Below, one piece after another: positions 23,483 through 53,338 of a stretch of 64,000 nt of DNA. Both the position numbers and the translations under genes were made by a program. This stretch comes from an uncultured delta proteobacterium (lineage in GTDB: Bacteria > Desulfobacterota > Desulfobacteria > Desulfobacterales > SG8-13), in NCBI GenBank assembly GCA_963848135.1, contig CAWKCK010000002.1, positions 434,001 to 498,000 of the forward strand, read 5' to 3'. Position 1 is the first letter of the stretch. Each line of letters opens with the position of its first letter. The notes under the pieces are model-generated. The model ran no database searches, was not told the origin of the DNA, and worked only from the letters and a program-made list of their open reading frames with translations.

Positions 23483-24402
23483 TTTTTGTGCTCTCGCTCG
23501 TTCGTATCTTCAATGTCTGCTTTTTTTTTAACGATCCGGGGCGTGGCTCGTCTCTCGTATCGCATCTGGCATACCTGCTCCGAAATAAGGCTCATCATGA
23601 ATATGATGACCGATGTCACAAAGAACAACGCGCTCATATTTGTAAATCTTCCTTCCGTGATGAAAGTGTATATGTAGCGCATCATTCCCAGGATGAACAT
23701 TATGAAGCTTACCGGAAGAAATACCCGCATTGGAGAGTACATGGTTGCGATCCGCGTGATGATCATGAAAAATCGGACCCCGTCCTTAAAGAACCTGATG
23801 TGACTCTTTCCCTGCAACCGTTTTTTGGTTTTTATGGGCAAATACTTGACACTGTTTCCGTTTCGGAGAACCCCAAGCGTGATTGTCGTCGGATATGAAT
23901 ACGTATTTGGTAAAAGATATAGAAAGTTGCGGGCAATGTCGGCTTTTACAGCGCGAAAACCGGAGGTCAGATCTTTAACCGAAAATTTGGTCACATAAGA
24001 TGCAAACCAATTGTATACTTTATTGCCAAGGGCGCGGCCGAGAGAGGCCTGACCGCTGCCTGACCGGGCGCCGACGACCATATCGTAATCGGGGAAATAG
24101 GCGAGCATGGCATCGATGTCCGCAGGGTCGTGTTGGCCGTCTCCGTCCATAAAAACCAGCACCTCACCTGTTGCCGTCCGGATTCCGCTTTTTATAGCGG
24201 CGCCGTTACCGATATTGTAAGGATGATTGAAAACAACGGCACCGGAATCTTCTGCAATTTCGGCCGTGTTGTCTTCCGATCCATCATTGATGACAATAAT
24301 CTCAGCTTCAGTGAAATAGCTTCGAATCTTTTTGACGACTTCGGCGATGGTGTGTTCTTCATTATAGGCCGGAATTATTACAGATACTTTAATAGGTTTC
24401 AT
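23479..24402 (-). CDS. DPM-synthase-like GT2 with two C-terminal TM helices
   Basis: VIIPAYNEE, INDGSED, NIGNGAA, MDGDGQH, MVVGAR, DLTSGFRA; hydrophobic C-terminus. Confidence 0.9.
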   Translation of the reverse strand: MKPIKVSVIIPAYNEEHTIAEVVKKIRSYFTEAEIIVINDGSEDNTAEIAEDSGAVVFNHPYNIGNGAAIKSGIRTATGEVLVFMDGDGQHDPADIDAMLAYFPDYDMVVGARSGSGQASLGRALGNKVYNWFASYVTKFSVKDLTSGFRAVKADIARNFLYLLPNTYSYPTTITLGVLRNGNSVKYLPIKTKKRLQGKSHIRFFKDGVRFFMIITRIATMYSPMRVFLPVSFIMFILGMMRYIYTFITEGRFTNMSALFFVTSVIIFMMSLISEQVCQMRYERRATPRIVKKKADIEDTNEREHKN

Positions 24403-31377: not shown

Positions 31378-31461
31378 GAACTTGTAAACAATACCGTCTG
31401 GATATTATTTTCTATTTGATTAAATACACGCCGGTCAAATCTCTCAGTCAGTAGGCGTCTG

Positions 31462-33368: not shown

Positions 33369-35711
33369 CTATCGCGTGATCAGTTCATGGAAATATTCAG
33401 TCCGGCGGATATTCGCCAGGTTGGCATCTTTTCGCAAAGAATCCCAATCATCGTATCCCCTGGACACAGCAATTTTTAGCCAGGCCAGAGACAATTCGAC
33501 CTTGTTTTGCCGGGCATAAATACTGGCAATAGTGTAAGGGGCATCCGGATCATACGGCTTTATCGATAATAGCGCCTTGAGAGTATCGATCGCATCCTGG
33601 TAGCGCCCCATTACGGCCAAAGTGGTGGCCAGATATTTTCGCGCCTCGATGTGGTCATGTTTATAAAATACGGCCTGGCGATAATATTCGGCAGCCTCTT
33701 CTGTATGACCCGATTGTTGAACGATTTTCCCCATATCGATAAGAAGCTGCGGATCTGTTGGGTTTTCGAGCAGTTGGGCCTGTATGCTCCTCTTTCGACT
33801 CTCTAACGCTTGCCATTGTTCATTGGCTCTCTGTATGCCTTTATGGGCAACCGGATCATCCGGCAGTTTCCTCAGCACCTTGCTAAAAAGCGTCTGTGCT
33901 TCCTTGAAACGACCTTTCCGAAGCAGTGCCAGTCCGAGGTTATTGCTAGCTTCCGTGTTTTCAGGATCATACCTCAAAGCAGTCAGATATTGATCAATGG
34001 CCTCACCGGATCGGCCCTTGTGCCGTAATGCAGCGCCGAGATTGTTGTGTGCTTCAGGATAATCGGGTTTTAAGCGGATGGCCTCCTCAAGATGGGCTAT
34101 CGCTGCTGTAGCCTCACCTCTTTTTATAAGGACCACGCCGATACCGTTGTGGGCAGCTGCGAGATTGGGATCGAAACGAAGGGCTTCCTGAAACTGAAAC
34201 AGAGCCACTTGAGTCCGGCCACGACTAAGGAAAAGATTTCCCAGATTGTAGCGCGCTTTGGAATGACCGGCATCGAGCGCAAGGACTTTCTCATATTGAA
34301 CGACAGCCTCTGCGTATCGCCCCTCATCTTCCAATGCACACCCCAAATTGTAGTGCGCTACGACATTGTTAAAGGTCACCGCCGAGGCTCTTTCGAAAAG
34401 TGTGCGTGTGTTTTTCCAATATGCCACTTGACCGCGGGTCAAAAAAAGTAGCAATAAAAGAACGGCAACGGTTGCCGGAACTAAATATACCCGCTTAATT
34501 CGCTGCTTAACCGCATGCTGTAAGCCCCATACAAGGGCGATATAAACACCGATTTGTGGAATGTAGGCGAATCGGTCTGCCTTTGCCGGCCATAGGCCGG
34601 CTTGCACAATACCACTCACCGGAACAAGGGTTCCCAGAAACCAGAGCCATCCGACGATCAGATACGGCGACACTCGCACTGACCGGAGAAATGCCCAAGT
34701 TATCGTTATCAACAGTAGTAAGGCGCCAATAACTTGCCAGGAAGGCAGCGCCACCGGGAAAGGATAGAATACAGCCAGATCCCGGGGCCAAAAGATATTG
34801 CCCAGGTAACGAACGTAAGAGACCAGGGCGTTTTCGATCCGGATCGCTAATGAGACCTTTAGCACCGATATCGGACCATCCTTAAGAGCTAACATTGACA
34901 GACATATAAGCACCGCTGAAAGCATCAACAGGGGTATCTTTTCTGAAACGAGCCAAAGACTATCTTTCCAAAATTTTAAACGAACCCTGCGTGTGGGTGA
35001 AGATTGACCCGTATCGCTGTTTTGAAATATGGTTATCCGTTTCAAGGGCCATAAGTCGAGAAGAAGAAGAGCAAACGGCAGGGTCGCCAGCATTGGCTTT
35101 GTCAGCAGTCCAAAGAAAAAGACGAGCAGTAATATCGAGTAACGCAGAAACGTTTTATTGGCGATATAATACAGATAGGCGCAGAGTACCAACATCCAGA
35201 AAAAAGTGCTTAATACATTTTTACGTGCCGCAACCCAGGCGACGGATTCGACATTCAGCGGATGGAGCGCGAAGATGAATGCGACCAGTGCGCTGCGCCA
35301 AATGGCACCGGTCGCCATGCGCAAGAAAAGAAAAATCAAAATGGCATTGCCCGCATGTAGCAGCGTATTCATCATGAGGTGCCTGCCGGGATTCAATCCA
35401 AACAATTGCACGTCAAGCATATGGGCAATCCAGGTAAGCGGGTGCCAGTATGTTTTTTCTTTACTGTCGAAACTGAATGCCCAGCGAATGTTTTCGGCAG
35501 ACAGACCCGTATTCACATTTTTGTTTTCGGTTACGTAATAATTATCGTCAAAAGATGTGAATTCATGTGTTCGGACCTGCCAGTATCCGGTAAATATAAC
35601 GATCACCAGCAGCAGGCCAATGAGCCATTCTATTCTTATAACGAAATCCGTCCATGACCGGGGCCGATATCGCGATGCAGCCGTTGCAACGACGTGTTCG
35701 ATTTCAGACAT
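33369..35711 (-). CDS. TMTC-like GT-C glycosyltransferase with C-terminal TPRs
   Basis: FTSFDDNYYVTEN, YWHPLTW, FALHPLNVESVAWVAARK, TKPM, ADRFAYIP, then about 8 TPRs (AHYNLG, AHNNLG). Confidence 0.85.
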   Translation of the reverse strand: MSEIEHVVATAASRYRPRSWTDFVIRIEWLIGLLLVIVIFTGYWQVRTHEFTSFDDNYYVTENKNVNTGLSAENIRWAFSFDSKEKTYWHPLTWIAHMLDVQLFGLNPGRHLMMNTLLHAGNAILIFLFLRMATGAIWRSALVAFIFALHPLNVESVAWVAARKNVLSTFFWMLVLCAYLYYIANKTFLRYSILLLVFFFGLLTKPMLATLPFALLLLDLWPLKRITIFQNSDTGQSSPTRRVRLKFWKDSLWLVSEKIPLLMLSAVLICLSMLALKDGPISVLKVSLAIRIENALVSYVRYLGNIFWPRDLAVFYPFPVALPSWQVIGALLLLITITWAFLRSVRVSPYLIVGWLWFLGTLVPVSGIVQAGLWPAKADRFAYIPQIGVYIALVWGLQHAVKQRIKRVYLVPATVAVLLLLLFLTRGQVAYWKNTRTLFERASAVTFNNVVAHYNLGCALEDEGRYAEAVVQYEKVLALDAGHSKARYNLGNLFLSRGRTQVALFQFQEALRFDPNLAAAHNGIGVVLIKRGEATAAIAHLEEAIRLKPDYPEAHNNLGAALRHKGRSGEAIDQYLTALRYDPENTEASNNLGLALLRKGRFKEAQTLFSKVLRKLPDDPVAHKGIQRANEQWQALESRKRSIQAQLLENPTDPQLLIDMGKIVQQSGHTEEAAEYYRQAVFYKHDHIEARKYLATTLAVMGRYQDAIDTLKALLSIKPYDPDAPYTIASIYARQNKVELSLAWLKIAVSRGYDDWDSLRKDANLANIRRTEYFHELITR

Positions 35712-38382
35712 CCGGTTCCTCTTCCGGTAAATAATCTATATGGGCTTCCGATTTTTCCGGTATCATTTCCATTTTAGGCGAATAGACTTCGATTTCATCA
35801 ATGGCCAAATAGCAATTGCTGGAGGCCTGCAACATGACATAGCGTGCCACCTGTGGTGGATTGACATCCAGCCTCAGCGGCCGTGAACGGTCAGATTCAG
35901 TGATGATCCCCGCCGCTTGCCAACGGTCGCCATCAGTTGACAGCATGATCTTCAATGGGCGGATGTTGGTGGGATACTTTTTTAAAAAACCGAGTCTCTC
36001 GCTTTCGTAAATATGAATCTCTCCAATTTTTTCAGGATGGTACAAATCGACAAACCACCAGGGTTGCTTCTTCTTGGCGGTTACAAAGCCGTCGCCGGGA
36101 TCGCGTTTACCATCAATGGCCTGCCCACTGGTGAAGAGATACGGATAGTGAGAATATATGGTCGCAATCATGTGGCTTTCTTTACCATACGCCAAATTTT
36201 GGCGATCACCGGCCGGTTTTGTCTCCCAGAAATACTCTGTTGCGAGATTATCTCCATTGTATAGGCTGTGATTCCAGAGATAAAAACAGCCTGCACACAT
36301 TAACAGGCCGATAACCAGCGTCAGGTAGTGCCAAGAACGATGGTATCGAGAAACGCAAAAAACGATAAGCAGGACCATCATGGTAGAAAAAAAGATAACC
36401 ACACCCCAGAAAGTGGCCGGGCTGTGATATTGGAACTCCACACGACTGTTGCCTTTCGGGACAACGACAGCCATGCTGGCACCATTGGCACGGTGGTGAA
36501 TTGCCTCGCGATCATTGACATAGACGTGCCATTTTTTATTGAAAGGATATGACAATCCGAATAAACACGTCTGAGACGATTCAATATCGAAAACCAAGCG
36601 GTTGAATGAACTGAAAGTCAATTTTACCGAGCCGCGTATCGGTTTTTCGAGATGGTTCGCTGGTAAGGTCACATCGACGGCTTCGACAATCACCATGTCT
36701 GGCGTACGCCCCTTCTTCATGAGGTCATACGCGTCATCATTGTCGATAGCTTTTGCCCACCGACTGTAGAGCTTTCCAAGATAGGGTTCGAGATACGCGT
36801 TTTCGACCTGTTTTAAGACAACAGCCGAGGCCATGCCATACCCGGTGGCATTTCGATAGGTCAGTTTTTCCTGTTTATGCCGCAGCATTTTTTCGAAGCT
36901 GGGCGTTTCCACTGCTCTCTTGATCCAGGTACCAGATTGCAGTAATAAAGTAACCTGAAAACAAAGAAGCGCGCAAAAACCAACGGCCGTGGCGAAAGCA
37001 TACCGCTTGATAATAGGTTTCAAAACGAACCAAAGCAGCAAAACGACCCCGGCCAGCGTTATGACGGTCTCTACCCAAAGAGGAACGCTTCTGACACTAT
37101 GTGCACTGAATGCTGCAATATCAGCGGTAATTGTCGCCGGATGATAAACCCACACACCAATGAGAATTACGGCCAAAAGTGACATTGCCGATAGGCTTGG
37201 CGTTGCGGGGAGGCGTTTGCCGATCGTTATTTTCCCGGAGACATCTGATGCCAACCAACCCATTATCAGCATGAGGTAAAATGGCGCGATCATCAGTATC
37301 CGTCCGGCAATCCGGAAGCTGGAGGCGAACGGTAGGTATTTCCAGGTCAGGAAATGAATCGGTAGTCTGTCTCCCAGACTGTGTAGCAACAGAAAAATGA
37401 CAAGACCCCAGGCCACCCAAATAACGGTCGGGATACGAACGCGCACAAGCCGTAGTAGTGGAATGATAATGGCCGGAAGAAACAGGATGGCACTTCCGAA
37501 AGCGCTGTGGAAGTCAGAACGCAGAGGGAATACAAAATTGTTAATCGTACCGGCAACGGTATCCCTGTAATCATCCGCCCATGCGTAGCCCTGTATGACC
37601 CGGCGTGCATTCGTGGTTAAAAACTCATAGTGAAACGAAAGAATGTATGGGGCAGACAGCAGCACGCCGGCAATGAGGCAGCAAAAAATGCGACCGTAAA
37701 TTTTCCACACAGGGCCTTCCGTTACCGGTCCTACACCGGTAAAAATACCGACATAGTACGGTGCCATCAGTGCGAAAAGCCCTGCGCCAAGCAGGCCATA
37801 GTACATCATTTGGGGATGCCCGCTGCAGACCAGCCAGTACGTGGCTCCAATGGTTGCCAGCCGGTAGGTCCACTTGCCCGGATATCGGATTTGAAGACCA
37901 ATAAACGAGCACAGAAAAATGAAGCCGGTCCAACTCTCCAGCGCTGCGCCATAGCGGAAGAGGTCAAGCATCCTCATATTGTAGACGGTAATAAACGAGA
38001 GCACAAAGGCAATGGCGCTCTCCAGTTTTAGGCTGCGGAGGAAATAAAAGAGTGCGAAATGACATCCGCCCAGAGACAGTAGACGCAACAAGGTGTTAAG
38101 CTCCAGAGCCTTTCCATCCCAATACCCTGGAAGGGCAGCCGCCAGATGGGATATGGGATGGAATATCTGTCCGAGAGTTAACGCCGCAAAGGAGTGCCCC
38201 CCGGCAAAGCCGGGAATATAAAGCGGGAAAACACCCATCTTCAGCGAAAACATCAATTCCATCTGCTGCTGGATGTGAAAAACGGCATAGTCGTTACCGA
38301 GTGTCAGCCCGGAAAAAAAAGGAACCAGCCAGTGTAAAACCAGAAACGGAAGCAGAAGAATCAGGGGCACCCAAAAAATCAC
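35704..38382 (-). CDS. YfhO-like GT-C membrane protein with C-terminal discoidin/F5-8-type-C-like domain
   Basis: GHPQ motif, FRIAGR, periplasmic W.V.VN...VVVPKG...VEFQY segment; C-terminal NLAYGK...AIDG...PWWFVDL...ARYV...LAIDEIEVY. Confidence 0.72.
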   Translation of the reverse strand: MIFWVPLILLLPFLVLHWLVPFFSGLTLGNDYAVFHIQQQMELMFSLKMGVFPLYIPGFAGGHSFAALTLGQIFHPISHLAAALPGYWDGKALELNTLLRLLSLGGCHFALFYFLRSLKLESAIAFVLSFITVYNMRMLDLFRYGAALESWTGFIFLCSFIGLQIRYPGKWTYRLATIGATYWLVCSGHPQMMYYGLLGAGLFALMAPYYVGIFTGVGPVTEGPVWKIYGRIFCCLIAGVLLSAPYILSFHYEFLTTNARRVIQGYAWADDYRDTVAGTINNFVFPLRSDFHSAFGSAILFLPAIIIPLLRLVRVRIPTVIWVAWGLVIFLLLHSLGDRLPIHFLTWKYLPFASSFRIAGRILMIAPFYLMLIMGWLASDVSGKITIGKRLPATPSLSAMSLLAVILIGVWVYHPATITADIAAFSAHSVRSVPLWVETVITLAGVVLLLWFVLKPIIKRYAFATAVGFCALLCFQVTLLLQSGTWIKRAVETPSFEKMLRHKQEKLTYRNATGYGMASAVVLKQVENAYLEPYLGKLYSRWAKAIDNDDAYDLMKKGRTPDMVIVEAVDVTLPANHLEKPIRGSVKLTFSSFNRLVFDIESSQTCLFGLSYPFNKKWHVYVNDREAIHHRANGASMAVVVPKGNSRVEFQYHSPATFWGVVIFFSTMMVLLIVFCVSRYHRSWHYLTLVIGLLMCAGCFYLWNHSLYNGDNLATEYFWETKPAGDRQNLAYGKESHMIATIYSHYPYLFTSGQAIDGKRDPGDGFVTAKKKQPWWFVDLYHPEKIGEIHIYESERLGFLKKYPTNIRPLKIMLSTDGDRWQAAGIITESDRSRPLRLDVNPPQVARYVMLQASSNCYLAIDEIEVYSPKMEMIPEKSEAHIDYLPEEEPDV

Positions 38383-39422
38383 GGTTTGGCCCCCCTCCGG
38401 TGGTTGGATTGCGCTTTTCTGGTCGACAGGATCCGCTGCGACAAACGGACTTCGCGTAGGTCACCGCCACATGCCTTAACGACATCATTATCCAGGTTCC
38501 GGGCGTCATTCAGCCAGTACAGCGGGGAATCCTGGCCTTGGACAAAGATCCGCCCGACATACGATCCTATAATGGCGATGCTGAAAAGGATTAGGCCGGT
38601 AAAAAAGAACATAAGGACAATGATTGACGTCCAGCCGGGTACGGTGACTTTAAATATGAAATGATCGATTAACGAAGTCACCAGGTGAGCCAGGCTGATG
38701 AGCCAAAAAAGGATTGATAAATAAGTGATGAACCGAATCGGTGCCGCCGAATATCCCAATGCCCCATCGAGAGCCAGGTTTATCATTTTGAAAAAGGAAT
38801 ACTTGGATTGACCTGCGAAACGGGCGTCGCTTTGGTAGGGAATGGCGCATTGTTGAAAACCCATGTTTACAAATAGTCCGCGCAAAAAACGGTGCGGCAT
38901 CCGGAACCCCTTCAATGCTTCTAAAACCGCTCTTGTGAATGCGCGATAGTCCCCACTGTCTTCAATGATGCGGAGGTCAGAAAAATGCCGCATGAAAAAG
39001 TAAAAAAACCTGGCGGTCAGGCGTTTGAACCAGGATTCGCCCGTCCGTATCTGTCGTTGAGCGTGAACGACGTCGAAACCGTTTTCGATCTTATTGATCA
39101 TATCGGCTATTAATTCAGGGGGATGCTGCAGATCGGCGTCAATCGTGACAATCACGTCTCCAACAGCGAAATCCATACCGGCCGTCAAAGCAATCTGGTG
39201 GCCACAGTTCCGGGCCAGGTGCAACACTTTTACCCGCCGGTCGCCTTCTGCGATAGTATTCAAAATGGTGGCGGTTCCGTCTAAACTTCCATCATCGACA
39301 TAGATGAATTCGAACTGATACGGCAACATTGTTTCGGCCAGATCAACCATCCGCTGATCCAGTGCCGCGATGGATTCAGCCTCGTTGTAACAAGGTATGA
39401 CGATGGAAATGAGTTCACTCAT
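38379..39422 (-). CDS. GtrB/ArnC-like undecaprenyl-phosphate glycosyltransferase (GT2 + 2 TM)
   Basis: ISIVIPCYNE, VDDGSLD, RNCGHQIALTAG, IDADLQHPP, SGDYR, RFLRGL, RFAGQSKY, PGWTS, IGSYVGRI; start at MSELIS (track gives 39524). Confidence 0.9.
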   Translation of the reverse strand: MSELISIVIPCYNEAESIAALDQRMVDLAETMLPYQFEFIYVDDGSLDGTATILNTIAEGDRRVKVLHLARNCGHQIALTAGMDFAVGDVIVTIDADLQHPPELIADMINKIENGFDVVHAQRQIRTGESWFKRLTARFFYFFMRHFSDLRIIEDSGDYRAFTRAVLEALKGFRMPHRFLRGLFVNMGFQQCAIPYQSDARFAGQSKYSFFKMINLALDGALGYSAAPIRFITYLSILFWLISLAHLVTSLIDHFIFKVTVPGWTSIIVLMFFFTGLILFSIAIIGSYVGRIFVQGQDSPLYWLNDARNLDNDVVKACGGDLREVRLSQRILSTRKAQSNHRRGAKP

Positions 39423-39578
39423 TACAGATCCAGTAGTATACTTCTCGATCTTTGAATTTTCTTTTTTCAATGGCGTGTTTCTCTTAGTCCCGCTTGCGGC
39501 CAATTCCAGTTCTCTGCACCGCAATCTCCGGGTAGACTTTACTGTAAACTGTGGGATTTCAGTCCAGCGTGAATGCGT

Positions 39579-42018: not shown

Positions 42019-42034
42019 AGCAATGATCGTGCCG
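42019..42034 (-). promoter_or_regulatory. sigma54 (-24/-12) promoter candidate for the downstream glycosylation genes
   Basis: Minus strand CGGCACG-ATCA-TTGCT matches TGGCACG-N4-TTGCW with correct spacing, about 130 nt upstream of 41891. Confidence 0.65.
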
Positions 42035-42317: not shown

Positions 42318-44051
42318 TCAATACGCAAGATCATTCAAGACAAAGAGTGCGTAGAGCTGATTTTGCTTGAGCAGTACCATGTCATGTGTGAAAAAATCAG
42401 CCGCTACTTTCCGCTCCCGCTCGTCCAGCGAACCCGCCCATTGTTTCAACAGGCCAAGGTGGACGATGACATGGGTATAACCTTTGTTATGGAAGGACTT
42501 CAGGACACTTTCCGATGTTGACGCCAGAATAATGGATCGGGTAAGTTTCTTTTCACCGAAAATCAATTTCCTATCGCAGTAATACCGACGGTTTCCCAAA
42601 AAAAGACCGAGAATTTTATCAGTCTCTTTGAGATTCTGATTCGCGTATTTCACCACGGGATATTCAGGTCTGAATTTCGCAATATATTCATCGCGTCCCA
42701 ATCGCCCACTGATGTAGCTGAAAGGATCGACTTTCCTGACCAGTTGTATCAAATAATCGGTATTCATCCCGAAAAGAAGCACTGCTGCCAAAATCATCGC
42801 CATTGAACCGGCCAACACAGTTTTTGAACGCTTTTGTGCCCGAATGAGCACCACCAAATTTTTAACACCAAAACACGACAATATGATCAGGGCCGGTATA
42901 ACCGGGGCAATGTATCGTATGCGAATACTTGTTCGGAAAAACGAGAACAGCAGAAATAGGATGACAAAAAATAAAAGCATGTTTCGTTCTAAATGGTCGT
43001 AGGACTGTAATTTTGGTTTTGGAAAGAACGCCATAAATGGCAGGAGCAAAAGGAATGGGTTGAGTTTTCCGTCAAAGTATTGCGGAGTGTCATCCTGACC
43101 CTGAAAGAAGATTCGAATCGGAACGAGGGCGATTTGTCCCCAAGATTCACCGTAAATAATTCGACGTACCGCCAGGTGGTTCCAGTCTTGGGTGCGTTTT
43201 TCGATTTCTGTCTGAATTTCAGACGGTTCCCCATCAACCGGATGGGCTGAAGCCGATGAGAAAACACTATTGTAAAGGGGAAATATAGGGTTGCCTGTCC
43301 AGAGAGTGTTTCGGAGCATCCAGGGCGAGAAGATCGCCAGGGCAATAATCGCATATCCAACGGCGAGCCCGACAGCTTTACCCTGGCGGACAGATTGACC
43401 GCCCCCGGATCGAAGGTAGATGTAGGGAACAAAAATCGTTAAAATAAAAAACGTTACCAGACCATTGTACTTTGTACCGAGGGCCAGTCCGCAATAAACG
43501 GCAGAAAAGATGAAATATTTGTACTTGCGTTTATCTTGTCCCCATTTAAAGAGGGCGAGCAAGGCTGCGGTTGAGAAAAAAACCAACCCAAGATCGACAT
43601 ATATGGTTATCGACAACTTGATAATAACGGGCAGAGACAGAAAAAATAGGACCCCGAACAGGGCATAGACCGAACCAAAGCGTTTTTTTACATAACCATA
43701 AATGATACCTGCCGTAAGGAGTCCAAAAAGGAAATGTATGAGTTTCGGGATAATATCGTTACCGAAATAAAGGGGGACCATGTAAAGCAAATCGAGGTTC
43801 ATGGGAAAATAAGAAAACGGAATGTATGGCAGTTCGACCATGCCACCGTGCTGAAGGTAAATTTTAGGGACAGCGAGGTGATGGGTCAGCGCATCCCGAC
43901 TCACCGGTGGAACCCATGACAGCAGGATAACCGCAAGTATTAAGACACAAATACACATTAGAAAAATAACACTGATTAAACTCTCGACCTTTTTGGGGGA
44001 ATTCTTAGTTTCTGCGTTTATCATCGTTTCCTTTGGCGGTTGCTGTCTCAC
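42318..44051 (-). CDS. GT-C fold membrane glycosyltransferase (ArnT/PMT-like)
   Basis: PPVSRDALTHHLAVPK, YVDLG, GLALGTKY, PWMLRN...GNPIFP, IRYIAP. Confidence 0.82.
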   Translation of the reverse strand: MRQQPPKETMINAETKNSPKKVESLISVIFLMCICVLILAVILLSWVPPVSRDALTHHLAVPKIYLQHGGMVELPYIPFSYFPMNLDLLYMVPLYFGNDIIPKLIHFLFGLLTAGIIYGYVKKRFGSVYALFGVLFFLSLPVIIKLSITIYVDLGLVFFSTAALLALFKWGQDKRKYKYFIFSAVYCGLALGTKYNGLVTFFILTIFVPYIYLRSGGGQSVRQGKAVGLAVGYAIIALAIFSPWMLRNTLWTGNPIFPLYNSVFSSASAHPVDGEPSEIQTEIEKRTQDWNHLAVRRIIYGESWGQIALVPIRIFFQGQDDTPQYFDGKLNPFLLLLPFMAFFPKPKLQSYDHLERNMLLFFVILFLLFSFFRTSIRIRYIAPVIPALIILSCFGVKNLVVLIRAQKRSKTVLAGSMAMILAAVLLFGMNTDYLIQLVRKVDPFSYISGRLGRDEYIAKFRPEYPVVKYANQNLKETDKILGLFLGNRRYYCDRKLIFGEKKLTRSIILASTSESVLKSFHNKGYTHVIVHLGLLKQWAGSLDERERKVAADFFTHDMVLLKQNQLYALFVLNDLAY

Positions 44052-44094: not shown

Positions 44095-45276
44095 TTAATC
44101 GGCAACATGTAGCAATATTTCCGGTGGGATTTGACCACTGTATAGCTTACCGTCGATCAGAAAAGCCGGCGTACCGGATACACCCAACTTCAGACCGTCT
44201 ATAATATCACGATGTAACTTTTTGCTGAAATCATTTCGGTGGAGCGCGCGAGTCAATGCTTCATAGTCAAGCCCGATTTCGTCGGCCAATACTTGCAGAT
44301 CAATCCGATCGGTAAATCGGGCATTGGCGAACAGGTAATCGTTTGTTTGCCAGAATTTTCCTTGCGTGGCTGCATAAATGGTTAGAATGGCCAGTGCGCC
44401 GGCACCCTTATGATTTTGACTTTTTACAATCGGGTTGACGGTGTGGTCCATAGGGAAATGACGATGGATGACTTTTATCTTTCCGGGATAGCGAGTCATT
44501 ATTTTCCGGAGATAATAGTTCATCTTACTGCACTGGAAACAGAGATAATCCGAAAACTCGGTGATAACCACCTTCCCGTTTTCAGCGCCGATCCAAGGAT
44601 GGCCGTCTGATGTCAATCCACTGGGTTGATCTGCCGACAAAAGTGCAGTTTTTAAATTCCAGTAGGATGGGAATAAGGACCAGAGGAGAAGAACCCCAGC
44701 CAAAAAAGAGATGAATACGAATTGGGCTGTTTTTCGCCATGTCCAAATATATCGGAGGTCATGCCCAATACTATTGTGTAAGGGCTCGTGAGCGAAGCGC
44801 TTCCTGATCAACCAGCAATAGTACAGTAATAAAAAATTAATCGCATAAACCAGAACACACATAATACAGTAACTATCAATATAGACATGGGAAATGACGG
44901 CAAGAATGATGCTAGAAATACTGTATACCAGTGCCACTATAAATATGACGCCCCATACTCTTTTTTTCTGCGCCGACGCTCTACCGGCAAACAGTAGCAG
45001 GAGAAGTAAAAAAATGTACCCGATCACTCCCCATACCGGAACGGGCATCCCCATAAAAATGGCATACGGGCTTTGTGAAACGGTATCGCAATTTATTGCT
45101 CTTGATATTGCGCAGAAGCTTTCGTAGCCAATATCATTATATATTCGATAATGTGAGACTGAAAGATAGGCGGAATCGGCTAACCCGATAAACGCCAAAG
45201 ATACAACTGTCCAGAAATAAACACCATATGCCAAAGGCTTTATCACGGCATTTCTGTCTGTAACAATAAGTGCCAT
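44095..45276 (-). CDS. VKOR-DsbA(thioredoxin) fusion, disulfide-bond formation
   Basis: VKOR loop Cys pair FCAISRAINC and TM CxxC YCIMC; thioredoxin domain EFSDYLCFQC, HRHFPM, GVSGTP (cis-Pro loop). Confidence 0.9.
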   Translation of the reverse strand: MALIVTDRNAVIKPLAYGVYFWTVVSLAFIGLADSAYLSVSHYRIYNDIGYESFCAISRAINCDTVSQSPYAIFMGMPVPVWGVIGYIFLLLLLLFAGRASAQKKRVWGVIFIVALVYSISSIILAVISHVYIDSYCIMCVLVYAINFLLLYYCWLIRKRFAHEPLHNSIGHDLRYIWTWRKTAQFVFISFLAGVLLLWSLFPSYWNLKTALLSADQPSGLTSDGHPWIGAENGKVVITEFSDYLCFQCSKMNYYLRKIMTRYPGKIKVIHRHFPMDHTVNPIVKSQNHKGAGALAILTIYAATQGKFWQTNDYLFANARFTDRIDLQVLADEIGLDYEALTRALHRNDFSKKLHRDIIDGLKLGVSGTPAFLIDGKLYSGQIPPEILLHVAD

Positions 45277-45309: not shown

Positions 45310-47388
45310 TCATTGATCTGTCGTTCCTGTTGTGGATAGACGGATATATTTTGCCATTTCACTGGTGATAGTTTGTTCTAATTTGCGATAATCATTCTTG
45401 TTATTAAGTGTTTCCTTGGAAATATCACCTAAGGATAATAAAATGGCTTCAACAGATGCGGATTGAATAAGATACCGAAGTAATGTCTCCACTTCTTCAG
45501 AGTCTTGCATCCGGAGATTGACGTCGATCAATCGTAAGTAAGTCAATATGTTTTCCGGCGCGAGGTTAAGTCCTATCTTGAATAGTTTCTCGGCCCTGCG
45601 GTTTGCGCTTATAGCCATCAGGGCGATACCGGCGTTCACATAACCGGCGGATTGACTGGGGTTGGCAAGGATTGCATCACGAAAAGCGATCAATGCACGT
45701 TCAGGATTATATTTATAGAGATGAATCGTTCCTTTTAGATTCAGATAATCGTTATTCCGCGGGTATCGCCGAAGGAGTATGTCAACATGACTTAAGGCGT
45801 TGTCCCACTTTTTTTGCTTCCGGAGGGTATCAGCCAAGCGATAACGGAAATACACTTTATGAGGGGCAATTGCATGGGCTTTCTCGAAATAAATCTCAGC
45901 ATCTTTGTATCGTCCTTGCCGAAAGTAGATATTGGCGATATTGCCATAAAGCTCGGCGCGATGGGAGCGCCGGTGCATTTTGAGATTTTCGGATCTTTGA
46001 TAGAGTTCCAGGGCCTTGTCCAGATGGCCATTTTTTTCATACAGAGCCATCGCCAGGTTATGAAGTGTCCGCTGAAGACGTGGCGCTTTGCGATAGGCAT
46101 CTGACCATAGGGAGACCTCGGTCTGCCAATCGCGGTTACGCTGATAAGTCCCAAAGCCGAACCCGATAATCAGCAAGATGATAAAACCAGACACGATCAG
46201 ATAATCGATTCTCCGGCGTTTGTATTCACGATCGAGCAGCCATTTCGCCCCGATGGCAACCGGAACAAAAAGAAACATGGAGGGAAGATAGTTGCGGTGT
46301 TCAAAAACCAACTCAAGAGGTAGAATTGTCGATTCAATAAGGTGATTTAGAAAGAAGAATAAGATGGCAAAACTGAGCATCGGGCGCTTCTTAATTTGAG
46401 CCAGAGCATAGAAAATCAATACTGCGATGACAACCATTGCCGGTATGGTCGTCCACGGATGCCACAATGACGTAGACACCTGGATGTCATGGTCAATCGA
46501 TAAACGTGCGGAAAGAGGAAAAAATATCTGTGTCAGGTAGAAAACAAGCACCCGCGGCTGGGTCAGTATACGTTCCATCGGCGTAAAATAGCGATCGCCA
46601 TACCCGGAAAATACCGACATGGCATCGCCATTAAGATAAAGAGCGCCGCCGATCCCTGCAACCACAACAAATCCGATAATACCGGCTGTCAGAAACCGCT
46701 TGCGGGTTTTAGTTTCATCCATATTATTGAAAAAGATAAACTCCACGAGGACAAGTATCAGTGGCAGCATCGCGGCGTTCTCTTTCGATGCCATTCCCAG
46801 CAACCACAAAACCATGGTAAACGAAGAGAAAAACAGAAAATTGCTGCGTTTGACTGTCGATCGTGCCTTAAGATAGCAATAGATACCGGCAATGCAAAAA
46901 AATCCCGCCAACACAGTCATACGCTGAACGATGTAAGTCACCGCCTGGACCTGAATCGGATTGGCGGCCCAAAGTACCGCGGCTAAAAGGGAAATAAAAT
47001 AGGTGGATCCCGTGTATTTCTTCATTAACGCCGGGGTCTCAAGTAAACATCTTGTCGATAGGAAAATCAGAAACGCCGTCAAGACGTGAAGCAGGATATT
47101 AACAAAGTGGTAACCGGTGACGATATTTTGACCGATGTACCAGTTAAGGGCAAAAGTCAGGAAAGATACCGGGCGCCAGTAAGAAGTTCTCTCCGGATGC
47201 TGCGTCGATTGAATCAATAGCGTAGGCGTGAGTTGGGCAATCTGTACCTTCGGATTGTTGACGATACTGAAATAGTCGTCAAGGTGCCAGGAGGCATTCA
47301 GGCTATTGCTATAAATGGTCAGCGTGAGGAAGAAGAGAAGGATTAAAGGAAACAGCAAGACTCTTGATGTCGAGTTTACATGACTCAT
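45310..47388 (-). CDS. TMTC-like GT-C glycosyltransferase with C-terminal TPRs
   Basis: WHLDDYFSIVNNP, YWRPVSFLTFALN, WAANPIQVQAVTYIVQR, SKENA, LSIDH, FEHRNYLPS, RNRDWQTEVSLW, then TPRs. Confidence 0.87.
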   Translation of the reverse strand: MSHVNSTSRVLLFPLILLFFLTLTIYSNSLNASWHLDDYFSIVNNPKVQIAQLTPTLLIQSTQHPERTSYWRPVSFLTFALNWYIGQNIVTGYHFVNILLHVLTAFLIFLSTRCLLETPALMKKYTGSTYFISLLAAVLWAANPIQVQAVTYIVQRMTVLAGFFCIAGIYCYLKARSTVKRSNFLFFSSFTMVLWLLGMASKENAAMLPLILVLVEFIFFNNMDETKTRKRFLTAGIIGFVVVAGIGGALYLNGDAMSVFSGYGDRYFTPMERILTQPRVLVFYLTQIFFPLSARLSIDHDIQVSTSLWHPWTTIPAMVVIAVLIFYALAQIKKRPMLSFAILFFFLNHLIESTILPLELVFEHRNYLPSMFLFVPVAIGAKWLLDREYKRRRIDYLIVSGFIILLIIGFGFGTYQRNRDWQTEVSLWSDAYRKAPRLQRTLHNLAMALYEKNGHLDKALELYQRSENLKMHRRSHRAELYGNIANIYFRQGRYKDAEIYFEKAHAIAPHKVYFRYRLADTLRKQKKWDNALSHVDILLRRYPRNNDYLNLKGTIHLYKYNPERALIAFRDAILANPSQSAGYVNAGIALMAISANRRAEKLFKIGLNLAPENILTYLRLIDVNLRMQDSEEVETLLRYLIQSASVEAILLSLGDISKETLNNKNDYRKLEQTITSEMAKYIRLSTTGTTDQ

Positions 47389-47418
47389 TTGCGGTTAACG
47401 TTTTCTGTTATATCATCG

Positions 47419-49495
47419 TTATAATTGACTAATTTTAAGCCGAATATTGGATTGTATGTCGCCGATCGGGATATTGAGATGTCGGTTTTGAGCAACGAGA
47501 TGTCTCAAATATGCCAGGGCGTGGGACGAGCCGACCCGCTCGATAAAACGATCCAGGTGTCGCCCTGCCGCTGTTTCTTCACCGACAATCATTCGGTTTT
47601 TTGCCAGCAAAAGATGCACCAACGGTTCAGTCGGACGGGCGGCTTCAGCCATGGTCATAAAATTATAACCCTGCTTCAAACTGCCTTGCATCGTCATTGC
47701 GGCACCGATGCCCAGCAGGTTTTGCCAATCTGCCGAATCCAGTTTAAGGCACGCTTGAAAATATTTTAAGGCTTCCTCCGGTTTGCCCTCATACAACAAA
47801 ATTATGCCTTTCAGTCTGAGCACATCTTCTTGCGGCGGTTTCTGGGAAATTATGTTCGCCAACGTTACTGAAGCGTCCTGCCATTTCCCGAGTCTTGTCT
47901 GGGTCAGACTGAGACGATAATAAATGCGATCATACCGGGGATAGGTTTCCAAAGCCATTTTAAAATACTTTTCAGCCTCGGGATAATTACCCCGTGTAAA
48001 ATGGATACTGGCAATGTTGTTCAAACTGCGGGTTTTTTCGTACACGTTCTGGCCGTTGAGATTGAGACCGCGATGGTAAAGATCAAGCGCCTCATCGTAA
48101 AACCCGTGTTTCTCGTAATATTGAAACGCCAGCTCGTGATGCGCCCGAATCGAACCGGGAGCCTTACGAAGAGTATCCTCCCAAAGGGATTTCTCATTGG
48201 CCCACGCCTTATTCCTGATGTATGTCCCTGTTCCCAAGCTGATTATGGCAAGAATAATGGCAGCCACGAGAAAACGTCGCATAGGCGGACTGCTGACTCG
48301 ATAATTCTCGAGGATTTTTTTGAATCCAAAGGACAACGGCATGAAAATAAAAAGCGAAGGGAGATAATTTCGGTGCTCATAGACCAATTCCAACCCGATA
48401 ACGGATGATTCTATTATATGGTTGATAAAAAAGAAGAGGATCGCGAAGCTCAACAGCGGTCTGCGCCCCATCCAGTAAAACCCGAAAACAATGAGGGCCA
48501 GTATCATTCCGATGCTCGGCAGGGTTGTCCAGGGATGAAAAATGGAAGTTGATACCAAAATATCATGATATATGGAAAGCCGGTCCGGTACAGGATAGAA
48601 AATCTGCGAGAGATACAACATCAGAACACGGGCCTCTGTGAGCAACCTTTCGATGGGGGTGAAGGTTCGAAAGGGATACCCCCTGAAAAAGCTGAACGGG
48701 TTGCCGAAAAGGTAAGTCCCCAGCAGGAGGACAAGGAGTCCTCCGGCGGCAAGGCACAGACCGAAATGCAACCTTTACACGCTTGTCACGTAAATCCCGG
48801 AAAAAGATGAACTCGACCAGCAGGAGAATCAACGGTAGCAAGGCCGCATTTTCTTTGCTGAATAGGGCGCATATGTAACTCATTGCGCACAAAATGAATA
48901 GCGCCAGGCGTGCGCCGAAATTAGGTTTTAACCTTGCCGTAAGGTACAGGTAGACAGCCAGCAAGTAAAACATCGCCGCCATCGATGCCATCCGCTGGAC
49001 AATGTAGGTCACCGCCTGGGTATGGATGGGATTGACAGACCAAAGGGCTGCGGTCAGCACCGCCGTCATAAAAGCATGGCTGCGCGATACTCCTTTCATT
49101 GCCGGTGTTTTCATCACGGCCAGAACGGTAGCAAACAGCAAAAGCGTCGTCAGAACATGAACGGTGATGTTGACGAGGTGGTAACCGAGAACATCGGTAC
49201 GGTGCACGAAGGCATTGAGGGCAAAGGATAAATAAGCCAGAGAACGGTAAGGTTTACGCTTGCCTTCCGGTGATGCGAAAAACGTCTGCCAGAGGGTACC
49301 GGGCTTCAGATCATTGATGAGCACCCGAGGGTTGCTTTGAATATTGGCATAGTCATCCAGGTGCCAGGATGACTGCAGGGTGTTGCTGTAGATAATGGCG
49401 ACCCATAAAACCAAAAGGAAAATGACAAGGCTGTACCCGGAAATTTTGTCGAATTTCTTATTGGTTTGGCACCCAGGCTGTGGCAGGCGGTTCAT
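47419..49495 (-). pseudogene. TMTC-like GT-C glycosyltransferase with TPRs, split by an apparent +1 frameshift at 48764-48766; possibly intact in vivo
   Basis: WHLDDYANIQSNP, YRSLAYLSFALN, NPIHTQAVTYIVQR, SKENA; deleting one T gives VKVAFGLCLAAGG and continues to YEHRNYLPS, RNKAWANEKSLW and TPRs. Confidence 0.85.
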
Positions 49496-49609: not shown

Positions 49610-49647
49610 AACAGAAAAGGGGAGTTGAATCCCTCCCCTTTTCTGTT
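49610..49647 (-). terminator. intrinsic terminator downstream of pilA (symmetric, potentially bidirectional)
   Basis: AACAGAAAAGGGGAG-N8-CTCCCCTTTTCTGTT perfect 15-bp inverted repeat, about 30 nt after the pilA stop. Confidence 0.8.
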
Positions 49648-49674: not shown

Positions 49675-50073
49675 TTAGTTGAGCCAGTACCCCTGCGAAC
49701 CACCCATGGTCTTGTAGAACTGGGTGCTGCGCGGGCAGCGATTGGAATCATCGTCGACAAAGATCTGGGTCAAGCCGGGCGTGTCCTCATCGATTGAAAT
49801 GCTGGTGGGCAAATTGTTGGTCGACAGCTGTTCGGTACTTCTTAGTTCATCCACAGTCGGCGTCGTGGTGTGGTCCGGCTCGGAGAAGTATGACGCCAGG
49901 GCCGCGGCGACACTCTGGGCATCCTGTTCACCGTAGCTGCAGAAGGCCTTGTCGCGGTAGGCGATGAAGTTAGGAATCGCGATGGCGGCCAGAATACCGA
50001 TGATAGCAATAACGATCATAAGTTCGATCAGGGTAAAACCTTTTTGATTGTTGCCTCTCAATTTCTGTAGCAT
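49675..50073 (-). CDS. pilA: type IVa major pilin
   Basis: Prepilin leader [34 protein letters not shown] with E5 and P22; strong SD AAGGAGGT; sigma54 promoter; adjacent PilR-like regulator. Confidence 0.92.
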
Positions 50074-50221: not shown

Positions 50222-50237
50222 TGCAATGCGCATGCCA
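50222..50237 (-). promoter_or_regulatory. sigma54 (-24/-12) promoter of pilA
   Basis: Minus strand TGGCATG-CGCA-TTGCA; AT-rich IHF-like tract (AAACAATAAGTTA) just upstream. Confidence 0.8.
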
Positions 50238-50629: not shown

Positions 50630-52030
50630 TTAGTCGGAATTTGTCCCCAGTTTGTCCAGACGGTAGCGCATCGATCGGAAACTGATCCCGAGCAGATCAG
50701 AGGCCTTGTTCTTGTTTCCGTTAGCAACTTCAAGCGCTTTGAGAAGATAGGCGCGTTCGATTTCTTCCAGGATGTTGTCCAGAGAGACGCCCTGAGATAC
50801 CTCATCAAGATCGAAGCGCCTGTCCCTGACACCCTCGATCCAACGGCGCTTGTGGATGGAAAGTGCCAGGCTGTCCGGCAACAGGATGTTGGTGGTCGAT
50901 AGCGCCACACTGCGTTCAAGAAGGTTTTCCAATTCACGAATATTGCCTGGGAAATCGTACTTGTTGAGCATATCGATGGCGTATGAGGATATTTTAGAAA
51001 TTTTCTTACCCATTTCCCGGGAATATTTATCGAGAAAGTGCTGCGCCAGGGCCCGCAAGTCGCCCTTCCGGTCTCTCAACGGGGGCATCTTGATTTCAAT
51101 AACATTCAAGCGATAGAAGAGGTCTTCCCTGAAATTCCCTTCGATGACCTCTTTTTCCACCTGCTTGTTTGTCGCAGCAATGATTCGGATATCAACCGAC
51201 AACTCTTCACTGCCGCCCACCGGCTTGAAGGTTCGTTCCTGGATGGCCCTCAGAAGTTTGACCTGGATCGGCATACTGAGTTCACCGATTTCATCCAGAA
51301 ATATCGTACCTTTGTCAGCCACCTCGAAGAGGCCCTTTTTGTCGTAAGTGGCACCGGTAAATGAGCCTTTCTTGTGACCGAAAAGCTCGCTCTCCATTAA
51401 GGTTTCCGGTATCCCGCCGCAATTTATAACCACAAACGGTTTGTCGCTGCGATCACTCTCCTGGTGGATGGCCCGGGCGATTAATTCCTTTCCGGTTCCG
51501 CTTTCACCGGTTATGAGAACATTGGTGCGTGTCGGTGCCACCTGGCGGATCATTTTATATATATGAAGCATGGCCGGGCTGTTGCCGACAATTATATCAA
51601 AATGAAGATTCTTCTTGAGCTCGCCTTCGATAATTTCTTTCTCGTGTTCAATCGTCTTCAGATCGAGCGCTTTGGCGATGGTTTGCTTCAGCTCTTCGTT
51701 GTCAAAGGGTTTGGGCACATAATCATAAGCGCCCATGTTCATGGCTTCAACCGCTGTTTCTGTGGTCGCGAATGCTGAGATCATTATAACGGTGGTGTCC
51801 GGATGTTTTGCCTTCGACGCTTTCAAGACATCCAGGCCGGTCATGTCTCCCAGCTTGATGTCGCAAAGCAGCAGGTCGTAGTCATTCTTGTCGAGCGTAG
51901 AAATGGCTTTGCGACCACTCTCTGCAAGGGATACCCTGTAGCCTTCCCGGGAAAGCAGGAACTCGAGCAACTCGCGCATGCTCAGTTCGTCATCTACAAC
52001 CAGAATATGCGGTTGAGTATTGGGTGTCAT
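50630..52030 (-). CDS. pilR: sigma54-dependent response regulator (REC-AAA+-Fis HTH), PilR-like
   Basis: LVVDDE receiver, GESGTGKE, ESELFGHKKGSFTGA (GAFTGA variant), FLDEIGE, DLFYRLNV, PGNIREL, GISFRSMRYRL HTH; directly upstream of pilA. Confidence 0.88.
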   Translation of the reverse strand: MTPNTQPHILVVDDELSMRELLEFLLSREGYRVSLAESGRKAISTLDKNDYDLLLCDIKLGDMTGLDVLKASKAKHPDTTVIMISAFATTETAVEAMNMGAYDYVPKPFDNEELKQTIAKALDLKTIEHEKEIIEGELKKNLHFDIIVGNSPAMLHIYKMIRQVAPTRTNVLITGESGTGKELIARAIHQESDRSDKPFVVINCGGIPETLMESELFGHKKGSFTGATYDKKGLFEVADKGTIFLDEIGELSMPIQVKLLRAIQERTFKPVGGSEELSVDIRIIAATNKQVEKEVIEGNFREDLFYRLNVIEIKMPPLRDRKGDLRALAQHFLDKYSREMGKKISKISSYAIDMLNKYDFPGNIRELENLLERSVALSTTNILLPDSLALSIHKRRWIEGVRDRRFDLDEVSQGVSLDNILEEIERAYLLKALEVANGNKNKASDLLGISFRSMRYRLDKLGTNSD

Positions 52031-52475
52031 GATTTCAACACTTACCTTTTCTTGAGTTTAATGTCAGAGACTATCGATTGTCCAGCCGCTTACTTTTACT
52101 CTCCGAATCTTTCACCAAATGAGGGTTTTCACGCCATCTTCCACCAACCACGAGACCCCCACAACACCGTCACTATAAATTTCTCGGCTGTGGAGCCGGG
52201 GTGAAATTCCCGAAATAGCGTTTTTCCCGTCATGCATCGCGAGCCGCAGCCGGTGCCAACGACTCAACAGTAAAACATATCGAATCGAACTCAATTAACC
52301 TATTAATTATACCGTATTTTCGGAAATGTTTCCAGAAGATCTTGCGGCAGGATACCGTGCAGGGTGGATCCGGTTTGGTTCTTCAGATTATACGGCCTGG
52401 GAGGGGAAAAATAATCGCGTCATAATCTCGCCGGATGCATGTTCTCATTCCCGTCAGTTTAGATCGAGATATTAA

Positions 52476-52640
52476 CAGGGTGTTGAAAAACGTCATGAGC
52501 GCCGGCAAGACAAGGCATAATCCGACGAAAAAGCGGAGTTTATGTGTGATAAATGAGCATTTTCGCTGAAGCGGGGGTAGGGTTCCGCGGTTCAGCCATT
52601 AACGCCGTATTGTCAAGCGCAATCGTTTTTCAACAGCCTG
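52476..52640. mobile_element. MITE-like non-autonomous element (165 bp)
   Basis: Terminal inverted repeats CAGGGTGTTGAAAAACG / CGTTTTTCAACAGCCTG flanked by TTAA and TTAG; no ORF. Confidence 0.7.
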
Positions 52641-52696
52641 TTAGATGACCTTCGGTAAAGTCGGAGAAATAGGTTGGAACCGTTCAAAGCGTCCTT

Positions 52697-53338
52697 TTAC
52701 CTTAGCAAATTTCCAAGCCGGTTCCATCGGACCGAAAAATCATCGCTGTCCCAAGACCAGTAAATCATAAATGCCTTGCCGCTGACGACTTTCAAATCGA
52801 CGAATCCCCAAAAGCGGCTGTCGAAACTCTGATCACGGTTGTCACCCATGACAAACAGAGAGTTATTGGGTACGGTAATCGGTCCGAAATTGTCCCTGGC
52901 TTGAATTCCTGCCGGATAGACCGTCGGGTCCGTTTTTATGGTATAGCCCTCTTCTATTGGTTGTCCGTTGACGAATATGGTTTTATTACGACCTTCAACC
53001 ATATCGCCGGCAATCCCGACGACCCGTTTGATAAAATCCTTTTCGGGCTCGACGGGGAATTTAAAGACAACGATATCACCACGATCCGGTTTTCCGATCG
53101 GAAGGATCACCTTTTGAAGGTACGGCAATTTCACGCCGTAGATGAACTTGTTGACCAGAATATGGTCACCGATCAGCAAGGTATCTTTCATCGAACCGGA
53201 GGGTATTTTAAATGCCTGCACCACGAAAGTCCGGATGAACAATGCCAGCAGTATCGCAACCAGTATCGCTTCGACATTCTCACGCAGACGGCTTTTTTCT
53301 CTCGGTACAGTTCTATTATCGTGCACAGCGTCGGGCAT
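52697..53338 (-). CDS. lepB: signal peptidase I
   Basis: IPSGSMKDTLLIGDHILVNK, RGDIVVF, DFIKRVVG, MGDNRDQSFDSRFWG. Confidence 0.96.
   Translation of the reverse strand: MPDAVHDNRTVPREKSRLRENVEAILVAILLALFIRTFVVQAFKIPSGSMKDTLLIGDHILVNKFIYGVKLPYLQKVILPIGKPDRGDIVVFKFPVEPEKDFIKRVVGIAGDMVEGRNKTIFVNGQPIEEGYTIKTDPTVYPAGIQARDNFGPITVPNNSLFVMGDNRDQSFDSRFWGFVDLKVVSGKAFMIYWSWDSDDFSVRWNRLGNLLR

Follow-up and report, generated by a model that had tools for sequence, protein, structure and literature searches.

What do two membrane proteins with TPR repeats do when they are encoded directly after a type IV pilin gene? The question is raised by 64,000 nucleotides of contig CAWKCK010000002.1 (GCA_963848135.1), positions 434,001–498,000, from an uncultured bacterium of sulfate-reducer type with a genome of 6.03 Mb. 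This whole stretch is called the window here, and all coordinates refer to it. In the window, pilA encodes a type IV prepilin of 132 residues (49675–50073, minus strand; PF07963 at 7.5e-12), and gene 1 begins 179 bp downstream of it on the same strand, followed by gene 2. An earlier note took the two genes for bacterial homologues of the animal TMTC enzymes, which put single O-mannose on Ser/Thr, with the pilin as substrate. We conclude that their products are probably inner-membrane GT-C glycosyltransferases of a build resembling that of the bacterial enzyme TfpW, transferring a lipid-linked sugar to the pilin.

Results

Motifs, fold and membrane topology

Gene 2 (45310–47388, minus strand) is an intact open reading frame (ORF) of 692 residues. 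In the AlphaFold2 model, its product consists of a GT-C domain with 11 transmembrane (TM) segments (residues 1–420) and a predicted periplasmic TPR domain (residues ~424–690). The translation contains, in this order, SWHLDDY, YWRP, NPIQVQAVTYIVQR, SKEN, LSIDH, EHRNYLPS, and RNRDWQTEVSLW. In gene 1, translations of its two fragments contain SWHLDDY, YRS, NPIHTQAVTYIVQR, SKEN, LSIYH, EHRNYLPS, and RNKAWANEKSLW, again in order, and TPR repeats follow the motif block in both genes (Pfam). All the motifs previously listed for the two genes are present in the translations in the order given then. They are not chance matches, because D37, D38, R72, K202, H364, R365, N366, and Y367 are invariant across an alignment of 133 relatives.

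As full-length profile and fold searches were flooded by TPR matches, the TM domain was folded and searched on its own. AlphaFold2 gave gene 2 models with a predicted local distance difference test score (pLDDT) of 94.7 for the whole protein and of 93.8 for its TM domain alone (alignments of 133 and 108 rows). When the TM-domain model was compared with 48161 chains using VIA-align, the top 20 were all GT-C enzymes or the GT-C-like PIGU (Z 9.8–19.6, 273–354 residues aligned). The highest Z values were 19.6 with AglB, 19.1 with Pmt1–Pmt2, 19.0 with ArnT, 18.6 with STT3, and 18.5 with Pmt4, and ALG12, PglB, and AftA are also in the top 20. The next fold after the GT-C group has a Z of only 4.8. 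Foldseek concurs, as every row to rank 35 is GT-C or GT-C-like.

The model helices of gene 2 make up the 11 TM segments and then TPR helices from residue 424. D37 and D38 sit 6–7 residues past TM1 in the predicted first extracytoplasmic loop, and the predicted cytoplasmic turns and adjoining helix ends carry KK, KR, KTRKR, KKR, and KRRR. Because these basic clusters fall on alternate loops, a periplasmic location is predicted for both the DD loop and the TPR domain. We infer from the model that the N-terminus is cytoplasmic, that the DD pair lies in the first periplasmic loop, and that the C-terminal TPR superhelix is in the periplasm. A cytoplasmic DD loop, which had been named as a ground for giving up the enzyme assignment, is thus not what the model and the basic residues predict.

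The predicted structure has the multi-span fold and the long first extracytoplasmic loop of the GT-C superfamily, and its acidic motif is present as DD in 133 of 133 sequences. The GT-C fold and the TMTC-type architecture claimed in the earlier note, with 11 TM segments and an extracytoplasmic TPR domain, are therefore borne out at the level of the model.

Could the proteins be non-enzymatic instead, that is, membrane-anchored TPR chaperones or assembly factors for pilin? Their names in public sources (TPR, PilF, or TadD-like) would suit such a role, TPR genes beside pilA have been interpreted as protein–protein interaction factors in the accessible text of PMC10580974, and an acidic residue of the TMTC RxD motif has been lost in the clade. 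However, the invariant residues lie in the GT-C loops (DD, R72, K202, HRNY) and none in the TPR part, and the full GT-C fold is retained at high model confidence. We consider a non-enzymatic role very improbable.

A divergent branch of the TMTC/PMT/ArnT group

Pfam and NCBIfam detect only the TPRs in the C-terminal third; residues 1–430 match no model, even with the threshold relaxed to E ≤ 10. PF08409 (TMTC_DUF1736), which covers the TM7–TM8 loop, has no match to either gene at E ≤ 10, and the profile check suggested for TMTC kinship is thus negative when applied directly. The kinship still holds because intermediates match both PF08409 and gene 2. The intermediates are TM-plus-TPR proteins scoring above the PF08409 cut-off (29.4–41.7 bits); among 201 sampled genomes of this phylum, 6 encode such proteins. 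The TM domain of gene 2 aligns over its whole length to one of them with a BLASTP E value of 1e-28 (29% identity, residues 12–431), and hhalign of the two family profiles gives a probability of 100% and E of 1.5e-82 over 581 columns. The term ‘bacterial TMTC homologues’ is accordingly justified in that the two genes are homologous to PF08409-bearing bacterial proteins, but not by PF08409 itself. In a language-model search, a chordate DUF1736 cluster came up at rank 25 with a score of 0.91, which we take as a lead only.

The motif set given in the earlier note for TMTC1–4 agrees with the consensus of the intermediates (FDD, YRP, HPIHTEAV, SKE, ERxLYLPS, RNxDW), whereas the window clade deviates from it at several positions. 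According to the accessible text of PMC7801869, TMTC motifs are M1 DD, M2 SHKSYRP, M3 RxD, M4 KE(T/Q), DW, and M7 ERxxY; H-K-S of SHKSYRP have been modelled as mannose contacts, and the RxD acid is the equivalent of D158 of ArnT, an acceptor contact. Among the 133 sequences, DD is kept in 133, R of YRP in 133, its P in 129, K in 133, and E in 118. On the other hand, S-H-K is not conserved, DW has become H-D, and ERxxY has become EHRNY. Because neither the RxD acid nor H-K-S is kept, O-mannose is not implied, and mannose as the sugar is unsupported.

Animal TMTC1–4 (CAZy GT105), cadherin O-mannosyltransferases of the endoplasmic reticulum, resemble the proteins studied here, as far as the accessible text of PMC7801869 describes them, in the 11 TM segments, the inside N-terminus, the extracytoplasmic TPR domain, DD in loop 1, YRP, K-E in loop 3, and an E-R-x-x-Y-type motif in loop 5. 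They differ in that our proteins lack a PF08409 match and have altered motifs, and the kinship is shown via the bacterial intermediates rather than eukaryotic TMTC sequences. The PMT/POMT protein O-mannosyltransferases and ArnT (GT-C class A) are among the best structural matches and share the acidic pair in loop 1 and the logic of a lipid-phosphate-sugar donor. Unlike them, our proteins lack a MIR domain, have 11 rather than 12–13 TM segments, and are matched by neither the PMT nor the PMT_2 model of Pfam. Judged by sequence, genes 1 and 2 represent a distinct, divergent bacterial branch of the TMTC/PMT/ArnT group.

The family is very large: 46868 representative proteins reach E ≤ 0.001, 6506 of them E ≤ 1e-30, and at least 616 stretches of the clade were found in species-representative genomes. 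In the source genome, the family is confined to the cluster, with one weak paralogue, a 780-residue TM-plus-TPR gene (33369–35711). Public names of the family's members are mostly TPR, TadD, or PilF and many members are unnamed, while 2 of 120 listed (JGI) are called ‘protein O-mannosyl-transferase’. The remark that such proteins are annotated only as TPR proteins is near enough, as public sources say almost only ‘TPR repeat protein’.

Conserved linkage with pilin genes

Linkage was examined in both directions. Starting from the enzyme, we took the 76 related loci that scored best in species-representative genomes; in 67 of them the sequence extends 700 bp or more upstream, so that they are assessable. 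A pilin gene lies beside the enzyme in 55 of the 67: in 35 it is on the same strand, no more than 1 kb upstream; in 8 it is at 1–3.2 kb, often behind a tandem copy; and in 12 it is convergent within 1.2 kb. No pilin is nearby in the other 12. As a background, the prepilin motif has 17 matches in 282 kb of far flank.

For the reverse direction, the pilin head domain as a single query matched in only 3 of 301 genomes across the phylum. Being too insensitive, it was replaced by a pilin profile in the class, from which the 40 best pilin matches in 40 genomes were taken. Four of them lack enough flank, and the enzyme adjoins pilA in 29 of the 36 assessable pilin loci. The two sets share some genomes, and the relatives are not independent.

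The linked pilins mostly belong to one family, in which two cysteines are invariant and a Ser/Thr-rich stretch comes after a conserved Y-F-x-x-P. When 39 of them were aligned, C45, C113, P114, and W130 were invariant (prepilin numbering). In the window pilin, the Ser/Thr-rich HTTTPT is located just past the long N-terminal helix. Another pilin type was observed in loci L037, L047, L068–L070, L073, L074, and L076, which are Syntrophales-type and others including Desulfonema magnum; their convergent pilin is free of cysteine and is of a type with the sequence FTLIEIIAVL. Since the enzyme is paired with this type too, the pairing is not limited to one pilin family.

With this conserved synteny, the pilin is the most likely acceptor, in line with the substrate named in the earlier note, as far as gene order can tell. 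Co-folding of gene 2 with mature pilin scored 0.00 in two runs, which speaks neither way.

We also considered that the enzymes might glycosylate other periplasmic or surface proteins, or a polysaccharide or lipid, their proximity to pilA reflecting co-regulation or a shared envelope island. The tightly packed same-strand gene array that runs from pilA through 28090 would allow it, containing five further GT-C-type genes (three PMT_2, one YfhO-like, and the weak TM-plus-TPR paralogue) besides GT2 and methyltransferase genes, and so would the Wzm/Wzt-type ABC transporter and further GT2 genes on the opposite strand at 10–19 kb. In addition, a family of 46868 representatives cannot all be pilin-specific. 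Against these stands the pairing with pilin in both sets, which extends across many genera while the remaining glycan genes vary. Such other acceptors are thus rather unlikely as the explanation for the two genes.

Partner genes and donor supply

The gene after gene 2 encodes a VKOR–DsbA fusion, a self-contained disulfide-forming enzyme (44095–45276, minus strand; Pfam VKOR and Thioredoxin_4/DSBA). It is followed by a second GT-C gene of PMT_2/ArnT type, encoding 577 residues without TPR (42318–44051, minus strand; PF13231 at 2.6e-12, PF02366 at 3.2e-9). Of the 76 related loci, 38 have VKOR–DsbA, which in most cases directly follows the GT-C/TPR gene, and 35 have a GT-C of PMT_2 type. They are conserved partners that travel with the cassette.

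The pilin family that the VKOR–DsbA gene accompanies has two invariant cysteines and no more: C33, in the region of the N-terminal helix, and C101 (mature numbering). This suggests that VKOR–DsbA is a dedicated oxidase for an unusual helix-to-sheet pilin disulfide.

Further down the array is a GtrB-like GT2 gene (38379–39524, minus strand), a candidate polyprenyl-phosphate-hexose synthase. By phmmer against the PDB, its product matches the polyprenyl-phosphate glucosyltransferase GtrB sll0501 (5ekp) at 2.1e-72, ArnC at 3.9e-40, and Dol-P-Man synthase at 6.9e-19. The gene content of the array, the GtrB-like GT2 included, fits a lipid-phosphate-sugar chemistry in the periplasm.

Comparison with TfpW

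TfpW of Pseudomonas aeruginosa group IV (Pa5196/PA7) is a pilin D-arabinofuranosyl transferase of 646 residues, encoded directly after pilA. As described in the accessible text of bioRxiv 10.1101/2020.04.19.049825, its N-terminus is cytoplasmic, 11 TM segments are predicted, its C-terminal end is a large TPR domain in the periplasm, and its model was built on ArnT. According to the same text, its DDx motif is essential, a topology study supports its periplasmic location, loss of TfpW abolishes pilin glycosylation with D-arabinofuranose, and the enzyme both polymerises and transfers.

The proteins of the window are like TfpW, compared by its description rather than its sequence, in the gene position beside pilA, the 11 TM segments, DD in the predicted periplasmic loop 1, and a TPR domain at the C-terminal end. 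The Y-x6-P motif described for TfpW also has a counterpart, Y284-x6-P291, with Y in 126 and P in 133 of the 133 sequences. With the same architecture and position, TfpW is by analogy the closest known system. The earlier note overlooked TfpW, a bacterial enzyme that is built alike, is encoded at the same place, and is already an experimentally shown pilin glycosyltransferase (bioRxiv 10.1101/2020.04.19.049825).

Unlike that of TfpW, the cluster here contains a GtrB-like hexose-type lipid-sugar synthase, the VKOR–DsbA fusion, and a second GT-C. Pfam scans found no D-arabinofuranose donor genes in the cluster, and the only ALO/DprE1-type domain of the genome is about 185 kb away on the same contig. 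TfpO/PilO and PglL, which are pilin O-oligosaccharyltransferases, are of Wzy_C type and differ in fold and family from the GT-C/TPR enzymes studied here. Like tfpW, P. aeruginosa tfpO lies downstream of pilA, and TfpO modifies its cognate pilin at a Ser; TfpO/PilO-type enzymes transfer preassembled undecaprenol-linked O-antigen units (bioRxiv 10.1101/2020.04.19.049825, accessible text).

The reading frame of gene 1

The claim of two tandem genes stands for gene 2, but gene 1 is not one continuous ORF over 47419–49495 (minus strand). It consists of two ORFs in different frames. The N-terminal fragment (48563–49495, minus strand) contains TM1–TM6 with DD, YRS, NPIHTQAV, and SKE, and is 41% identical to residues 15–232 of gene 2. 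The C-terminal fragment, in the +1 frame (47419–48771, minus strand), contains TM7–TM11 with LSIYH, EHRNYLPS, and RNKAW and then the TPRs, and is 41% identical to residues 251–649 of gene 2. The two gene copies are paralogous, with about 41% identity.

The first frame is read to about residue 244. Because the second frame has a TAA at 48775–48777, the switch, a +1 shift, is placed within about 48760–48774, and the part of the 48563–49495 ORF that is 3′ of about 48770 is out-of-frame read-through. Twelve public sediment-type sequencing runs match parts of the stretch, none of them with half or more of the sampled words, and no RNA run is among those listed. Contigs from four public runs do not include any that spans 48763–48916.

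Another GT-C gene, of PMT_2 type (30003–31404, minus strand), is also split, with a frameshift near 30520. Its intact homologue in locus L052, of 445 residues, can be aligned with it only by using two frames, one for residues 38–280 at 31257–30523 and another for residues 282–432 at 30518–30066. Such breaks are therefore not unique to gene 1 in the window. When the DNA was inspected, no long homopolymer was found at either frameshift site (about 48760–48774 and about 30520). Gene 2 is probably the working copy, and gene 1 either is a pseudogene or carries an assembly error.

Neighbouring genes and control elements

Upstream of pilA, a pilR-like gene encodes a sigma-54 response regulator (50630–52030, minus strand; Pfam Response_reg, Sigma54_activat, and HTH_8). 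A pilR homologue is present in 34 of the 76 related loci. In the window, pilR is without an adjoining pilS-type kinase gene; the next gene upstream encodes signal peptidase I (52697–53338; gap examined 52030–52697).

A sigma-54-type −24/−12 element, TGGCATGCGCATTGC (50223–50237, minus strand), came out of a pattern search with 1 mismatch; it lies between pilR and pilA, about 150 bp upstream of the latter. The pattern has 55 listed matches with up to 2 mismatches, equal to the chance expectation, and the pilA-upstream site is one of 3 that have 1 mismatch. With the count at chance level, only position and orientation favour this site. Another near-consensus match with 1 mismatch (42020–42034, minus strand), which could well be due to chance, precedes the methyltransferase–GT2 gene starting at 41891. 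Between pilA and gene 1, a consensus scan predicted a terminator-like palindromic hairpin with a 15-bp stem (49610–49647), a kind of match that does not speak for a function.

The array downstream also holds the methyltransferase–GT2 fusion, a separate methyltransferase, a YfhO-like protein, and PMT_2 genes with or without TPR, and minus-strand glycosyltransferase genes extend on to 18874. The product of the YfhO-like gene (35704–38382, minus strand) spans 892 residues, is a membrane protein, and ends in an F5/8 type C (discoidin) domain; the gene has no homologue in the 76 related loci. Past the array, a 1195-residue HEAT-repeat protein without any other Pfam family is encoded at 24462–28049 (minus strand); homologues with 41–42% identity are near the cassette in loci L001, L007, and L029. 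A large polysaccharide locus occupies 8406–24402, with an epimerase, a Wzm/Wzt-like pair of ABC-2 permease and ATPase, a GT2–GT8 fusion, several GT2, and one GT4.

Discussion

How would the cassette work? On the cytoplasmic side, the GtrB-like GT2 (38379–39524) may attach a sugar to polyprenyl phosphate, and the lipid-linked sugar would then be flipped to the periplasmic face. There, while the prepilin or pilin is still anchored in the membrane and not yet assembled, the GT-C domain would transfer the sugar to its Ser/Thr, with the TPR domain of the enzyme holding the pilin head. The likely target would be the Ser/Thr-rich loop after the N-terminal helix, HTTTPT in the window pilin. The VKOR–DsbA fusion would form the C33–C101 disulfide of the pilin, and the PMT_2-type GT-C may attach further sugars or lengthen existing ones, whether at these sites or elsewhere.

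Several results weigh against pilin glycosylation by these enzymes. In 7 of the 36 assessable pilin loci, there is no TPR enzyme; one of these loci comes from the one further genome in the sample that belongs to the same family as the source genome, and 4 of the 7 retain VKOR–DsbA and the PMT_2 enzyme. The TPR enzyme is thus dispensable for the pilin family, and PMT_2 could be the main transferase. No Ser/Thr position is invariant in the pilin alignment, and the candidate Ser/Thr loop shows no clear difference between pilins with and without the enzyme, although only 7 are without it. Within the enzyme, the RxD acid is absent, with no D or E at its position in 133 of 133 sequences, and HPIHTE mostly reads NPIQTQ in the clade, so the acceptor-site chemistry may differ. 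The Pfam PMT, PMT_2, and DUF1736 models and sequence searches of the PDB give no match to the TM domain. Gene 1 is interrupted, and the polysaccharide locus at 8–24 kb (ABC-2 transporter, many GT2/GT4) offers other acceptors. Finally, pilin glycosylation by the clade is a deduction from sequence, gene order, models, and analogy.

The loci without the TPR enzyme also bear on another explanation, in which the PMT_2-type GT-C (42318–44051) starts the pilin glycan and the TPR enzymes are accessory, only extending it or adding extra sites. Besides the four loci in which PMT_2 and VKOR–DsbA stand beside pilA, the same-family genome among them, this is favoured by the number of TPR-enzyme copies, as the TPR enzyme is an accessory, variable part of the kit with 0–3 copies per locus. 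It is also favoured by the dual activity described for TfpW (bioRxiv 10.1101/2020.04.19.049825, accessible text). In most loci, however, the TPR enzyme comes directly after pilA, ahead of the PMT_2 gene, and a TPR domain suits protein recognition, while no sequence feature separates initiating from extending activity. We regard initiation by PMT_2 as unlikely, if the least unlikely of the alternatives considered.

The same-family genome (G443, locus L119) shows how such a locus looks. Its pilR is 87% and its pilA 61% identical to those of the window, and VKOR–DsbA and PMT_2 genes follow directly without a GT-C/TPR gene. Where the window pilin reads EPDHTTTPT, its pilin reads EPENMRVPT.

For the window, transfer of a lipid-linked sugar to the pilin by the GT-C/TPR enzymes remains our preferred explanation. 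A broader proposal is that the ‘EHRNY/QRM’ clade is devoted to the O-glycosylation of pilins and has evolved together with a disulfide-stapled pilin family and a private VKOR–DsbA across Desulfobacterota, including cable bacteria; we give it an even chance. If so, the clade would be a large branch of bacterial TMTC relatives that replaced the acceptor-site acid and the histidines of HPIHTE.

Cable bacteria have been described with a similar gene neighbourhood. Geelhoed et al. 2023 (PMC10580974, accessible text) reported pilA with two genes for sugar-modifying enzymes and at least one TPR-protein gene in nearly all Electrothrix clades, and high expression of PilA in cable bacteria. There, the TPR proteins beside pilA were read as protein–protein interaction factors only. 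Electrothrix and Electronema loci with the same cassette as the window are among our related loci (L031, L039, L045, L057), and the cassette was also seen in Desulfofustis glycolicus DSM 9705 (L033) and in a MAG record of Desulfosudis oleivorans (L024). In a literature search mostly without subscription journals, we found no paper on the function of a bacterial TMTC-like protein or on glycosylated PilA of cable bacteria.

The earlier reading of this locus was partly right. What it observed is real apart from the gene 1 frameshift, and its interpretation is right on the fold, on a family that is a distant branch, and on the likely acceptor, but overreached on mannose and novelty. Because TfpW already shows the principle, this is no new kind of system. 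By analogy, it appears to be a variation on TfpW-type pilin glycosylation, here combined with another GT-C and with a disulfide oxidase of its own.

The conserved pairing with one pilin family provides a concrete, testable acceptor for a family named almost only ‘TPR repeat protein’. The finding also ties the enzymes that O-mannosylate cadherins in animals to a relative in bacteria that is built alike. If the clade is indeed dedicated to pilin, this would be the first function for any bacterial TMTC-like enzyme, and the pilins of these electroactive and syntrophic bacteria would be glycoproteins. The finding thereby bears on the nature of PilA in the cable bacteria and sulfate reducers that carry the same cassette.

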